A DNA stretch of 64,000 nucleotides from Alphaproteobacteria bacterium. GTDB taxonomy: Bacteria > Pseudomonadota > Alphaproteobacteria > Bin95. The translations under genes were made by a program, and so were the position numbers. Below are positions 29,554 to 32,677 of the stretch, piece by piece. Location of the stretch: the NCBI GenBank assembly GCA_963665325.3, contig CAXXWS020000003.1, positions 544,001 to 608,000 of the forward strand, written 5' to 3'. The notes under the pieces were generated by a model. It saw only the letters and a program-made list of their open reading frames with translations, made no database searches and was not told the DNA's origin. How positions within the stretch are numbered: the first letter of the stretch is position 1; each line of letters opens with the position of its first letter.

Positions 29554-29898
29554 ATGATTGAAATGTCGGTTAGGTGGAACTACTGGACAGGGCACATCAG
29601 TCAAGTTGACGAGACTTTGCGCCGAGCACTGGGCGCATATGCACGACATAGTTCAGAGTTCAAAATCGGTCTCACGAGCGACCCCGAAGCAAGATGGAGG
29701 GCATACCGGGCGCAGGGTTGGCGCGAAATGATAGTTATCTACCAAACAACATCTGCAACCTATGTTGGCCGAGTAGAGGATCACCTGATTCAGCATGGAC
29801 AGAGAAGGCACATGGATAAATCATGGAACCAAAACAGAGGAGGGGGCGGCCTGCGACAGGGGTATCTAAACTACTATGTTTATGTGGTCTTATATTGA
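29554..29898 (+). CDS. low-GC hypothetical protein, possible circularly permuted GIY-YIG nuclease
   Basis: 114 aa; FKIGLTSDPEAR, VEDHLI, WNQNRGGG, C-terminal YYVYVV; visibly AT-richer than its neighbours. Confidence 0.6.
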   Translation: MIEMSVRWNYWTGHISQVDETLRRALGAYARHSSEFKIGLTSDPEARWRAYRAQGWREMIVIYQTTSATYVGRVEDHLIQHGQRRHMDKSWNQNRGGGGLRQGYLNYYVYVVLY

Positions 29899-29919: not shown

Positions 29920-30708
29920 ATGACCGGCGAGACGGCCCTTTACGAACGCGACGGTGCGATCGTCACAATCACGCTGAATCGGCCCGAGAAGCTCAATGCC
30001 TTCGACGATGCTGCGGTGGAAGCGCTGTCGGAGGCGCTGGCCCGTTTTGACACCGACCCCGACGCCAATGTGGCGGTCCTGCACGGGGCAGGGCGCGCCT
30101 TTTCCACCGGGGCGGACGTGCTGCGCCGGCAGCTGCGGCCGCGCGAGGAGCTGGAACGGTTCGGCGGCCCCCAGGGCCGCGGGGCTGATTCCGGGCGGCT
30201 GTTCGTCCATGCCGTCAACTGGAAGCCGGTGGTCGCCGCTGTGCATGGCTACGTCATGGGGCTCGCGGTCGGCATTGCGCTCGACTGCGACCTGCTGGTG
30301 GCCGAGGCGGGCACCCGCTTCCAGATCACCGAGACCTCGCGCGGGCTCGGCGGCTCGGTCTATTGGGGGCTGATGCGGCTGCGGGGCGCGGGCGCCTTCG
30401 GCGACGAGGTGGCGCTGACCGGCCGTTGGTTCACGGCAGAGGAGGCCGCGGCAGCCGGCGCCATCAACCGGCTGGCGCCTGCCGGGGGCCATCTCGAAGC
30501 CGCCCGCGAGCTTGCGGAGATGCTGAACGCCAACCCTCCCTTGAGCGTGCGTTCCACCGTGCGGGCGCGCCGGCGGGAGATTGCGCGGGTGCGCTCCGAA
30601 CTCTTCGCCGCGGCGCAGCCGGAACGGCTCTATCTCACCGAGGACTTCCACGAGGCGGCGCTCGCCTTCAAGGAAAAGCGCGCGCCCGGACCGTTCAGGG
30701 GCCGGTAG
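29920..30708 (+). CDS. enoyl-CoA hydratase/isomerase family protein
   Basis: 'ITLNRPEKLNA', 'FSTGAD', 'KPVVAAVHGYVMG'. Confidence 0.92.
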   Translation: MTGETALYERDGAIVTITLNRPEKLNAFDDAAVEALSEALARFDTDPDANVAVLHGAGRAFSTGADVLRRQLRPREELERFGGPQGRGADSGRLFVHAVNWKPVVAAVHGYVMGLAVGIALDCDLLVAEAGTRFQITETSRGLGGSVYWGLMRLRGAGAFGDEVALTGRWFTAEEAAAAGAINRLAPAGGHLEAARELAEMLNANPPLSVRSTVRARRREIARVRSELFAAAQPERLYLTEDFHEAALAFKEKRAPGPFRGR

Positions 30709-31555
30709 GCGGGGGTTCCAGACCCTCCAGGACCGGGCGGAAGCCGATCAGGATGTGCTTGAGCGCGGCCGGGCGGCTGTGGCGGGCAGCCGGGCGGCAG
30801 ACGCCGCAGCCGCTGTCGTCCCAGGAGCCGCCCTTGACCAGGAAACGCCCGGACCGGGCCTCGGTCGCGGTCCACTCGAAGACCTGGCCGGCGGCGTCCA
30901 GCAGGCCGAAATGCGAGGCGCTTTCGGGGAACTGCCCGACCGGCAGCGTGTCGAACGGCCCGCCGTCATGGCTGTTGAGGCGCTCGGACGCGAATTCGTC
31001 GCCCCAGGGGAAATGGCGGCCATCCGCGCCGCGCGCGGCCTTCTCCCATTCGAGCTCGGTCGGCAGCCGCCAGATCCGCCCGGTGCGCTCCGAGAGCCAT
31101 TCCGTGTAGGCCCGCGCATCTTCGTGCGTGACCAGCACGACGGGGTGCGCCTCCCGGCCCTCGGGCGGGCGGCCGCCGATCCAGGCGTGGCGGCGGGTGC
31201 GGGGATATGGGTGGATCAGGCCGTAGCCCTTCCAGGTTTCGGCATCGACATCGGGCGCCTTGTGCCCTGTCTCGGCGACGAAGGCCGTATATTGCGCATT
31301 GGTGACGGGCGTGCGGGCGATCCGGAAGCCCGGCAGGCTCAGCGTCCGGCGCTCGCGCTCGCCGTCATACCAGCCCTGCTTGCGGGTGACCGAATGGCCG
31401 TAAGCGGCTTCGTCCAGCCGGTAAGCGGCCTCGCGCTCTGCTGCACCCGAGCCGGCGATGAACGCCCCTGCCGGTACCGGGACCGTTTCCGGCAGGTCCG
31501 CGGCTGCCGTTCCGCAGGCCGCCAGAACCAGTGCTCCCGCTAGCGCAACTCGCAT
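30695..31555 (-). CDS. secreted FGE-sulfatase-domain (SUMF1/EgtB/PvdO) protein
   Basis: Signal peptide; 'TPVTNAQY', 'HPVV.V...DARAY', 'RLPTELEWEKAARG', 'FPWG', 'GQVFEW', 'KGGSW', 'IGFR'. Confidence 0.92.
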   Translation of the reverse strand: MRVALAGALVLAACGTAAADLPETVPVPAGAFIAGSGAAEREAAYRLDEAAYGHSVTRKQGWYDGERERRTLSLPGFRIARTPVTNAQYTAFVAETGHKAPDVDAETWKGYGLIHPYPRTRRHAWIGGRPPEGREAHPVVLVTHEDARAYTEWLSERTGRIWRLPTELEWEKAARGADGRHFPWGDEFASERLNSHDGGPFDTLPVGQFPESASHFGLLDAAGQVFEWTATEARSGRFLVKGGSWDDSGCGVCRPAARHSRPAALKHILIGFRPVLEGLEPPPTGP

Positions 31556-31732
31556 CTCTTCGCCCCTTCGATGGACAGGCGAGCCTTCTTGAGCGCCGCG
31601 CGCAAGGCCCGCTCACGCAGTTGTGACCGGGACCGTCCATTCTTCCGGGCCGCCATATCGGTTAGCATCGAAGCAGGCGATTTCCGGATCGTCCTGAGCA
31701 TTATCGGGAAAACCAAAATCGGGAGAACTGCC

Positions 31733-32044
31733 ATGAAATCCTATAGGGCCCGCCTGCTTTCCACGGCGGTCATCGGTGTTGGCATGGCTGTCGGCGCCGT
31801 CGGCGCGGCAAGCCTCGCCGGCACGGCCTACGCCGCCTGCAAGCCCGCCGCTTGCGCGTGCAACCCCTGCAAGCCGGAATGTGTGTGCAACCCCTGCAAG
31901 CCCGCCTGCGGCGCATGCAATCCCTGCAAGCCCGCCTGCGGCGCGTGCAACCCGTGCAAGCCCGCTTGCGGCGCGTGCAATCCGTGCAAGCCCAAGAAGG
32001 CCGCCTGCGGCGCTTGCAACCCCTGCAAGCCCAAGAGCAACTAA
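31733..32044 (+). CDS. secreted Cys-rich repeat mini-protein (6 x CNPCKP)
   Basis: GGAGA RBS; Sec-type signal ending in AYA; mature ~69 aa with 19 Cys; synonymous variation among the 30-bp repeat units; own terminator. Confidence 0.88.
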   Translation: MKSYRARLLSTAVIGVGMAVGAVGAASLAGTAYAACKPAACACNPCKPECVCNPCKPACGACNPCKPACGACNPCKPACGACNPCKPKKAACGACNPCKPKSN

Positions 32045-32090
32045 GCCCGAACGGGCCGCGGCCGGCTCACCAGCCGGCCGCACCTTCCGT

Positions 32091-32123
32091 GGCCGCGGCG
32101 CAGAAATGCGCCGCGGCCTTTTT
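32091..32123 (+). terminator. rho-independent terminator of the Cys-rich gene
   Basis: ggccgcggcgca-gaaa-tgcgccgcggcc 12-bp stem followed by ttttt. Confidence 0.85.
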
Positions 32124-32677
32124 CATGCGGCGTCGGAAATCGCCTGCGCTTCCGGCTCCAGATCCAGCTGGAGGGCGTCGTTGAAGCGGTTGAATGCCCC
32201 GCAGAGCGCGATCCGCCACGTCAGTTCGACGATCTGCTCCTCGCTGAAATGCGCTTTCAGCCGTTCGAGAATCCCGTCGCGGATGCCCCCGGCGCGGTCG
32301 TTGACCTGGACGGCGTACTCGACCACCAGGCGGTCGATATCGTCGAGTTCCGGGTGGTTTTCCGGGTCGTCCAGCAGGATGGCGACCCCGGCGGCGCTCA
32401 TTCCCTCAACAGCCAGCATCGGTCCGTGATGGGCCACGCAATAGTCGCAGGCATTGCGCTGCGAGACCGCGACCAGCGCCAGCTCCAGATAGCGGCGCGG
32501 CAGCACGGCTTCCCGGCGCAGCGCCGTCAGCAGGCCGAACGTGTGCTCCAGAATGGGCGGCCGCCGGCCGAGCGCGCCCACCAGGCTGGCGAACGGCCCG
32601 TAGGAAGCTGCATCGTCCACAAGCGGATGCAGGGCGGGCGGCAGGTCTTCTCGTGCGGCATAGGCGATGCGGGCCAT
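32123..32677 (-). CDS. carboxymuconolactone decarboxylase / AhpD-family protein
   Basis: 'ELALVAVSQRNACDYCVAHH' CxxC motif, 'FSEEQIVEL', 'NRFNDAL'. Confidence 0.9.
   Translation of the reverse strand: MARIAYAAREDLPPALHPLVDDAASYGPFASLVGALGRRPPILEHTFGLLTALRREAVLPRRYLELALVAVSQRNACDYCVAHHGPMLAVEGMSAAGVAILLDDPENHPELDDIDRLVVEYAVQVNDRAGGIRDGILERLKAHFSEEQIVELTWRIALCGAFNRFNDALQLDLEPEAQAISDAA

Follow-up and report, generated by a model that had tools for sequence, protein, structure and literature searches.

To our knowledge, no enzyme of its fold other than the formylglycine-generating enzyme (FGE) acts on protein cysteine, and sulfatases are its only natural clients. In the account given by PMC12123546, FGE holds Cu(I) by two thiolates and takes the peptidyl-Cys of the substrate as third ligand, and PMC2459300 gives CxPxR as the core client motif. 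Bufferins are described in PMC11626156 and PMC12452194 as Sec-exported, copper-binding peptides made by ribosomal synthesis and altered post-translationally (RiPPs) that are modified by MNIO/DUF692 enzymes. Here, we analysed a 64,000-nucleotide stretch of the genome of an Alphaproteobacteria bacterium (contig CAXXWS020000003.1, positions 544,001 to 608,000; hereafter the window), in which the genes of an exported FGE-fold protein and of a secreted Cys-repeat mini-protein lie back to back. Genetic linkage across the class strongly supports these two proteins as a functional pair, and comparison with homologous loci suggests that their genes are most likely what this genome keeps, in reduced form, of an envelope module conserved in Alphaproteobacteria. 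The genes of the pair and their parts are as follows.

30695..31555, minus strand: gene of the exported FGE-fold protein, 286 amino acids, PF03781, with a hydrophobic leader
30794..30832, minus strand: loop GGSWDDSGCGVCR of that protein, residues 242-254, which holds Cys250 and Cys253
31733-32044, plus strand: Cys-repeat mini-protein gene, 103 amino acids, made up of a 34-residue leader and a 69-residue mature part
31733..31834, plus strand: Sec-type signal peptide of 34 amino acids that ends in AYA, predicted from sequence
31835..32044, plus strand: mature Cys-repeat polypeptide and stop codon, 69 amino acids with 19 Cys, in CxxCxxC units with K/P/A spacers

Relatives of the mini-protein were collected by a word-based search of 5.8 billion proteins (six relatives), a profile search of 1.84 billion representatives (47 relatives at E 1e-3) and a scan for the back-translated motif in a single genome of each species, which gave 69 loci, 10 from the same genus-level group and 59 from outside the genus. 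An FGE orthologue (61-69% identical) was found within the flanks in 25 of the 59 non-genus repeat loci, and all 25 of these also carried a DUF6969 gene. For five repeat loci with no FGE neighbour we searched the whole genomes, and each of the five had exactly one orthologue elsewhere (59-64% identity, E ~1e-110). Starting from the other partner, a metagenome scan with the FGE-fold protein gave at least 436 relatives; the best 80 were taken, 33 of which had at least 2.5 kb on both sides. Among these 33 well-flanked loci, 21 had an open reading frame (ORF) with at least three C[NSAGK]PC motifs, 26 had DUF6969 and 18 had P460, and two more (L105 and L150) had CGAC-only repeats, bringing the loci with a Cys-repeat gene to 23 of 33. 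An earlier reading of this DNA from its letters alone (the sequence-only reading) had named a conserved neighbourhood of CNPC repeats and the GCGVC subfamily of FGE-fold proteins as a check of the pairing, and such a neighbourhood is borne out by both of these counts and by the class survey described below.

Co-occurrence was assessed in 400 genomes drawn evenly from Alphaproteobacteria. A genome was scored as FGE-positive when it held an orthologue at E 1e-60 or better, and as repeat-positive when it matched a DNA pattern of two nearby CNPC motifs, which misses the CGAC-only repeat variant. FGE was found in 32 of the 400 genomes (~8%), the CNPC pattern in 37 and DUF6969 in 90 (~22%; 89 above the Pfam cut-off and 1 a genome flagged unpublished). 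When the two-CNPC pattern was reversed, zero matches were obtained in all 401 genomes searched, and the motif is therefore far beyond chance. Both FGE and repeat were present in 23 genomes, FGE only in 9, the repeat only in 14 and neither in 354 (odds ratio 65, Fisher P 9e-21), and the association persisted among the DUF6969-positive genomes alone (odds ratio 10, P 3e-6); these P values overstate the case, because the genomes sampled include relatives and do not count as independent. Twenty families are represented among the 23 co-positive genomes, and DUF6969 was present in 36 of the 37 repeat-positive and 31 of the 32 FGE-positive genomes. Gene order and orientation vary: the FGE and Cys genes are divergent here, and elsewhere we found the order DUF6969-FGE-small-large (the last two being the small and large forms of the Cys-repeat gene), the orders DUF6969-FGE and DUF6969-Cys, or FGE and DUF6969 located away from the repeat gene. 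This variable order argues for functional selection over inherited synteny.

Within the genus, whole-genome searches found the mini-protein in 14 of 16 other genomes, and the arrangement enoyl-CoA hydratase (ech)-FGE-Cys-AhpD-hydantoinase is kept in 12 genomes. The Cys and FGE genes are both missing in G001 (95% completeness) and G015 (100%), and the unlinked DUF6969 gene of G015 is split over two frames. In G008, the FGE copy (L180, G008:C1:2990863-2994690) lies 200 kb from the Cys gene and has 2 TGA and 1 TAG in frame. In the family outside the genus there was no convincing mini-protein match; one match in a second genus had 30% identity at E 3e-4.

The mini-protein begins with the leader MKSYRARLLSTAVIGVGMAVGAVGAASLAGTAYA, which is followed by 69 residues composed of 19 Cys, 13 Ala, 13 Pro, 10 Lys, 7 Asn, 4 Gly and 3 others. 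With Cys at 19 of 69 positions (28%) and zero aromatic residues, it has metallothionein-type traits, and the predicted Sec leader ahead of a Cys-containing part is a trait of the bufferin type. The motif CNPCKP occurs six times, four of them within identical ACGACNPCKP units, and Tandem Repeats Finder (TRF) reported a 30-nt period with 5.4 copies in the gene. Comparison of the four identical units gave 16 codon-pair differences, 16 of them synonymous and 0 non-synonymous; since all the differences are synonymous, it is the peptide, more than the DNA repeat, that is under selection. Searched against Pfam and NCBIfam at E 0.01, the mini-protein matched no family, including no metallothionein or bufferin model, and it ends after the repeats, without a P460 domain. 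The ESM Atlas returned nameless clusters only, with scores of 0.82-0.84, which are under the usable level. Re-reading of the gene confirmed its earlier description as a signal peptide and a ~69-residue part in six repeat units, 19 of whose residues are Cys, with a ribosome-binding site and a strong terminator of its own; what the sequence-only reading stated about the sequence was correct throughout. In two RNA-library runs and a third, presumed RNA run, the Cys gene was covered by a contig of 200 nt at 31686-31885 (3 differences) and by 60-nt pieces (5 differences); these are relatives' contigs, whose shortness and divergence keep them from showing expression.

By sequence, the mini-protein belongs to a CNPC/CGAC Cys-repeat family that we define here and that has been nameless so far. 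The 59 non-genus loci come from Anderseniella, Hoeflea, Sneathiella, Rhizobiaceae, Hyphomicrobiales, Rhodospirillales, Kiloniellaceae, Pelagibius, Magnetovibrio and further Alphaproteobacteria. Common to the relatives are a leader of the form MKS-F/Y-K/R-x-x-LL... and, after it, a CxxCxxC unit with Ala/Lys/Pro spacers. The leader of the mini-protein could be aligned with those of distant relatives (P0004-P0006), and in L049 the small and the large Cys-repeat protein both have an N-terminal start like it. Across 136 distinct repeat ORFs, 2012 of 2990 CxxC motifs were C-N-P-C and 542 were C-G-A-C. The repeat region of the family consists of 26.5% Ala, 23.6% Cys, 13.4% Pro, 12.3% Asn and 9.1% Lys, with hardly any aromatic or hydrophobic residues and no His. 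Repeat number ranges from 4-8 CNPC in the genus up to 44 elsewhere, with up to 162 Cys, and this free variation fits a multi-site substrate or a stoichiometric binder. Two P460 proteins (L105:3515-4690 and L150:3464-4594) carry N-terminal CGAC or CGACGAKKG strings, with 43 and 30 Cys.

The FGE-fold protein matched PF03781 over its full length (148.6 bits, E 3.4e-43), in agreement with the earlier assignment of the leader-bearing gene 177 bp off, on the divergent side, to the FGE-sulfatase family; no NCBIfam equivalog was matched at its cut-off. Its loop region carries GGSWDDSGCGVCRPAAR. The CxxC that had been pointed out in the GGSW loop proved to be conserved without exception in the orthologues aligned: all 18 have the same residue at G242, G243, S244, W245, D246, D247, G249, C250, G251, C253 and R254, and Cys250 and Cys253 are the sole conserved Cys of the mature protein. 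These 18 orthologues (60-82% identity) share 88 invariant columns, which include His, Asp and Trp. Among 34 C-terminal tails compared, 33 had the CxxC motif, the exception (L074) being a sequence that ends short of it. Orthologues at 59-74% identity are spread over Alphaproteobacteria.

We then considered the structure of this protein. The AlphaFold model had a predicted local distance difference test (pLDDT) score of 82.3 and a predicted template modelling (pTM) score of 0.84, with low confidence in the Cys loop (residues 249-251, pLDDT < 50). In Foldseek, CalU17, ToxD, pFGE, bacterial and human FGE, OvsA and EgtB were about equally near to the model (E 1e-15 to 1e-18), and the FGE structures from S. 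coelicolor, T. curvata and human were matched with a probability of 1.00, a template modelling (TM) score of ~0.65 and E ~1e-15. No Cys stands opposite the CxxC pair in ToxD, CalU17, pFGE or PorK in the alignments covering the loop. The loop is equated with that of true FGE on the strength of the GGSW...R-x-A-x-R frame common to both and of the alignment to pFGE. The protein thus has the FGE-sulfatase (SUMF1-like) fold, but two features that define a catalytic FGE are missing, namely the Cx4C spacing of the Cys pair and a CxPxR sulfatase client in the same compartment. Because of these two failures, we do not file it as a catalytic FGE; its sequence identifies it as a protein of the FGE fold with a Cys pair in the right loop.

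We know of no described P460 protein that bears a Cys-repeat N-terminus. A P460 domain with CxxCH was found in 47 of the 59 non-genus repeat loci, nearly always as the C-terminal part of the repeat-bearing ORF, and these fusion ORFs are 260-770 residues long. The domain scored 34.6 bits against PF16694 in L049 and 25.5 bits in L042, with a cut-off of 27. A small (~90 amino acids) repeat protein and a large fusion are adjacent in L040, L042-L044, L049, L056, L060, L079 and L090, and the window gene, from its sequence, is the small form of the Cys-repeat protein. Queries of this genome with PF16694 and with the L049 domain gave no match, an empty result that is not taken as absence.

The second frequent partner is a DUF6969 protein (PF22308, 264-282 bits, 240-260 amino acids), whose gene adjoins that of the repeat protein at 39 of the 59 loci. 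It carries an invariant H-x-H...E-H-G-H-F-H cluster and has no leader, whereas the FGE-fold and repeat proteins have one. Its model was confident (pLDDT 86.8, pTM 0.89), and Foldseek found nothing in the PDB at E 0.001; the highest Z from VIA-align wide was 5.7, to ~58-residue helical hairpins of ribosomal proteins, which is trivial, and the ESM Atlas returned DUF6969 clusters only. The DUF6969 gene of this genome is on another contig (L098, G000:C3:430794-434408), with a 445-residue ORF before it and a 141-residue ORF after it, both without a Pfam family; there is no cytochrome or Cys-repeat gene within 1.5 kb of it. In 20 genomes that have DUF6969 and neither FGE nor CNPC, cytochrome c adjoins the gene in 9 and a repeat-less P460 in 5, indicating that DUF6969 tracks periplasmic haem proteins in general. 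Next to repeat-less P460 genes there was no FGE orthologue, L270 alone having a relative at 35% identity. It is thus specifically the Cys repeats that the FGE-fold protein tracks, not P460 as such. This family context, in which P460 fusions and DUF6969 are the commonest partners, had been missed by the sequence-only reading.

Other genes found repeatedly near the module encode class I cytochrome c (at 20 loci) and a rhodanese-domain protein (at 12), as well as DegP, DUF2336 and TRAP/TAXI transporters. A secreted cupredoxin-like protein of ~140 amino acids is encoded near the FGE-fold gene in 23 loci (L048, L068, L070, L087, L092, L102-L104, L106, L114, L125, L129, L131, L132, L135-L137, L141, L143, L146, L156, L164 and L175); it reaches PF13473 only at E 0.0015-0.005 and has three conserved Cys in the pattern TQT[PG]CQF...DC...SCPLNxTP[DN]Y, without the usual type-1 copper ligand pattern. 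None of these recurrent neighbours, from the cupredoxin-like protein, cytochrome c and rhodanese to DegP, DUF2336 and TRAP/TAXI, is present in the window.

Based on these comparisons, the module would consist of an FGE-fold protein that is exported and has GCG[V/I]C as an invariant loop, exported CxxCxxC-repeat proteins (mostly CGACNPC/CNPCNPC) that are small and free-standing or fused to a C-terminal P460, and a cytoplasmic His-rich DUF6969 protein. The 69-residue product may be a poly-thiol that is unfolded in the periplasm and on which the FGE-fold protein acts as on a client, with ACGACNPCKPACGACNPCKP as the candidate substrate peptide. The CxxC pair would hold Cu(I) and take a peptidyl-Cys thiolate as third ligand, in the manner of the FGE Cx4C pair, and either some repeat Cys would be oxidised or copper or redox equivalents would be exchanged with them. 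Of these outcomes we lean towards oxidative processing; its product would be a modified polymer with metal or redox activity. The two functions put forward by the sequence-only reading, metallothionein-like binding and Cys modification, both stay candidates. An oxidative or copper-mediated action of the CxxC FGE-fold protein on repeat Cys is proposed tentatively, with a likelihood that we place somewhat short of even. It is rather unlikely, to judge from the same sequences, that this amounts to a new protein-modification pathway, in which an exported copper-type CxxC FGE-fold oxidase turns many repeat Cys into non-thiol residues; the products of such a pathway would be formylglycine, thioaldehyde-derived or heterocyclic groups, its substrates the small protein here and P460 cytochromes elsewhere, and DUF6969 would probably take part. 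When the mature FGE-fold protein and the mature mini-protein were co-folded without controls, the interface score ipSAE was 0.02 and 0.01, against a mark of 0.32, an outcome that speaks neither for binding nor against it.

Several observations weigh against an action of the FGE-fold protein on the repeats, or against the pairing itself, in addition to the relatedness of the sampled genomes. The pairing of the enzyme with the repeats is read from genes. The residue after CNPC is Ala at 53%, Asn at 31% and Lys/Arg at 4% of 2027 sites, leaving a sulfatase-like C-x-P-x-K/R context unconserved, and some relatives have Pro-free CGAC repeats; the CNPCK of the window does fit C-x-P-x-K, a likeness to sulfatase CxPxR that is peculiar to the genus. 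The Cys spacing of the FGE-fold protein is CxxC (GCGVC), compared with Cx4C in human FGE (C336 and C341, from PDB titles), and a sequence profile run against the PDB placed ToxD closest (E 1.2e-38), with true FGEs at ~1e-19. Moreover, the link is not obligate, as 14 of the 37 repeat-positive genomes lack FGE and 9 of the 32 FGE-positive genomes lack the CNPC pattern. Within the genus, G008 has an intact 90-residue Cys gene and a sole FGE copy with three stops, and G007 has a shortened Cys gene (a 69-residue frame that matches query residues 1-69) beside a 59-residue FGE remnant.

The same material can be read in other ways. The repeats might be an unmodified periplasmic metallothionein-like buffer whose CxxCxxC thiolate clusters bind Cu(I), and perhaps Cd, Hg or As(III), with repeat number setting the capacity and the FGE-fold protein as a mere accessory, either copper donor/acceptor or thiol-keeping factor. 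A repeat region with 24% Cys, almost no aromatic or hydrophobic residues, no His and a three-Cys block as its unit would suit such a role, as would the cupredoxin-like secreted protein at 23 related loci, and a repeat number that varies freely (4-8 in the genus, up to 44) is expected of a stoichiometric binder. However, the known periplasmic copper binders rely on Met and His, free thiols being oxidised there. In addition, no metal-resistance or metal-regulator gene is among the recurrent neighbours, no Pfam or NCBIfam metallothionein model was matched, and it would be left unexplained why the repeats are so closely linked to a protein of an enzyme fold whose CxxC is invariant; we regard the buffer as doubtful, though it is the chief rival. 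That the repeats are usually tethered to a P460 haem domain (47 of 59 non-genus loci, nearly always in the same ORF) suggests instead a redox or nitrogen-oxide accessory of P460/cytochrome c, in which they would act as a dithiol/disulfide relay or as an NO/hydroxylamine sink, with DUF6969 and the FGE-fold protein serving the haem system. The DUF6969 genes that stand without FGE or repeats beside cytochrome c (9/20) or repeat-less P460 (5/20), the cytochrome c at 20 and rhodanese at 12 related loci, and the CNPC motif itself, which we take to resemble redox CxPC motifs, all agree with it. We consider it improbable, since P460 was not matched in this genome (by two queries whose empty result does not count as absence), the mini-protein is free-standing here and also occurs beside the large form in other lineages, and the FGE orthologue, apart from the 35%-identical L270 relative, follows the repeats and not P460 as such.

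The pair may also be non-catalytic, in which case the FGE-fold protein would serve in structure or binding, as PorK/GldK or pFGE do, and the mini-protein would be a disulfide-knotted envelope component. FGE-fold proteins without known catalysis (PorK/GldK and pFGE) are indeed among the matches, and the CxxC might be a mere structural disulfide of the periplasm, but the invariant CxxC sits in the very loop that bears the catalytic Cys pair of FGE, and 88 columns, with His, Asp and Trp among them, are invariant in 18 sequences. A knot is also unlikely for the mini-protein, because it is a low-complexity repeat without hydrophobic residues, and this reading appears quite improbable to us. Finally, the adjacency to the Cys gene would be incidental if the protein were an ordinary sulfatase-maturing FGE. 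The genome does encode at least four Cys-type CxPxR sulfatases, one of them 8 kb before the window, and its two other FGE-family paralogues lack the loop Cys pair. Yet the sulfatases, to judge by their N-termini, have no leader and the FGE-fold protein has one, 185 related loci (1.38 Mb) contain 0 sulfatase homologues, the spacing is CxxC instead of Cx4C, and the linkage to repeats and DUF6969 is strong; we consider an ordinary sulfatase-maturing role very improbable. An oxidative or copper-mediated action on the repeat Cys remains the reading that we prefer.

The sulfatases in question carry CAPSR, CVPAR, CQPSR and CMPAR as their CxPxR motifs, and their N-termini are without a leader; the leaderless CVPAR sulfatase is located at G000:C4:535947-536957, 8 kb before the window start. 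Three PF03781-like genes were found in the genome, none with a canonical Cx4C pair. A second FGE-fold gene (L008, G000:C1:927664-930972) adjoins a NirK-like copper nitrite reductase in the NirV arrangement, and its loop has neither CxxC nor Cx4C. The 185 related loci also contained no MNIO/DUF692 homologue and no DUF2063 partner. The single MNIO of the genome (PF05114, 333 bits; L278, G000:C4:155260-159057) is on the same contig, ~419 kb away from the pair. Just upstream of it is a 97-residue, leader-bearing, bufferin-like precursor with four spaced Cys, a separate Cys-peptide system. The likeness to DUF692 substrates drawn by the sequence-only reading does not hold, given that the related loci have no MNIO and that the MNIO of this genome has a precursor of its own.

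The intergenic region and the downstream end of the Cys gene contain the following features.

31556..31732, no strand: divergent intergenic region, 177 bp between the FGE and Cys start codons
31612..31628, no strand: conserved palindrome CTCACGCAGTTGTGACC (TCAC-N6-GTGA), a candidate operator in the divergent promoter region
31721..31726, plus strand: ribosome-binding site GGGAGA, 6 bases 5' of the ATG
32091..32123, plus strand: intrinsic terminator of the Cys-repeat gene, a hairpin at 32091-32118 followed by TTTTT
32123-32677, minus strand: AhpD/CMD gene, after a 14-nt gap from the hydantoinase gene

Alignment of 13 genus loci showed conserved blocks amid variable sequence in the intergenic region. 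The palindrome halves TCAC and TTGTGACC are unchanged in 13 of 13 loci, with variable flanks, and GGGAGAAC at the ribosome-binding site of the mini-protein is likewise unchanged in 13 of 13. A second conserved block, CCATATCGGTTAGCA, is located ~35 nt downstream of the palindrome. In a genome search for the palindrome with up to 3 mismatches, sites were no commoner than for the reversed control. The terminator stem has 12 pairs, 11 of them G-C, with a 4-nt loop, and this hairpin is the sole terminator-like site in 31400-32300. For the AhpD gene, the earlier suggestion that it belongs with the hydantoinase was upheld by the 14-nt gap between them, and its link to the Cys gene held in the genus and not beyond. 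AhpD and hydantoinase were rejected as parts of the module, as homologues stood beside the Cys gene in 0 of the 59 non-genus loci. The enoyl-CoA hydratase was rejected too, with a single 35%-identical match (L065) among the 59 loci. A 114-residue ORF at 29554-29898 of the window, upstream of the enoyl-CoA hydratase gene, has no Pfam or NCBIfam family.

The results describe a distinct exported FGE-fold subfamily, present in ~8% of sampled Alphaproteobacteria, that is tied genetically to near-pure strings of Cys. If this tie is enzymatic, it would widen FGE chemistry, might provide a new multi-site aldehyde or metal-binding tag and would account for the ability of a thiol-rich polymer to function under the oxidising conditions of the periplasm. 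The new protein-modification pathway, if true, would have an oxidation-proof metal-binding or cross-linking polymer in the periplasm as its product and would give the FGE fold a second natural substrate class and DUF6969 a first function. DUF6969, with a fold that has no solved relative and a presence in ~22% of sampled genomes, gains a first testable context, and attention is drawn to P460 cytochromes whose N-termini are poly-Cys, a class that has gone unnoticed. Cultured carriers exist (a Hoeflea isolate, L075), and the hypotheses are therefore directly testable.

The gene module appears to be undescribed. We found no paper on DUF6969 or on P460 with formylglycine or cysteine-rich regions, and none on periplasmic metallothioneins or FGE-fold RiPP-like systems that match the module, in a literature search that covered few subscription journals. 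Compared with FGE/SUMF1, the window protein shares the fold, a conserved Cys pair in the loop after GGSW and peptidyl-Cys as the likely client, but it has CxxC, is exported, has no sulfatase neighbourhood and is nearer to ToxD and CalU17 by sequence, and its putative client, a repeat with many sites, lacks the Arg of CxPxR. NirV, ToxD and CalU17 are similar in having the FGE fold, an unassigned chemistry and a gene beside a redox metalloprotein; they differ in having no Cys at the position of the CxxC pair (aligned ToxD and CalU17, and the NirV-like C-terminus) and no linkage to Cys repeats. The likeness to P460/c'-beta proteins (PF16694) comes from the relatives of the mini-protein, most of which carry this domain, with CxxCH at the C-terminus, whereas the window protein itself has no P460 domain. 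Like metallothioneins and Csp, the repeats have 24-28% Cys, a small residue set (C, A, P, K, N and G), no aromatics and CxxC/CxxCxxC motifs; unlike them, the mini-protein is predicted to be Sec-secreted, is strictly repetitive, matches no family model and is tied genetically to the FGE-fold protein, DUF6969 and P460. Bufferins also pair a leader-bearing Cys precursor of periplasmic destination with candidate modifying proteins, and DUF6969, as a cytoplasmic metal-site protein, could act as a cytoplasmic modifier in the same way. The module differs from them in having no MNIO/DUF2063 in 185 loci, in repeats that are far more Cys-dense and can belong to a haem protein of 400-770 residues, and in matching no NCBIfam bufferin model. 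By analogy, the nearest described logic would be that of the bufferins, Sec-exported and Cys-modified copper binders, but with different enzymes.

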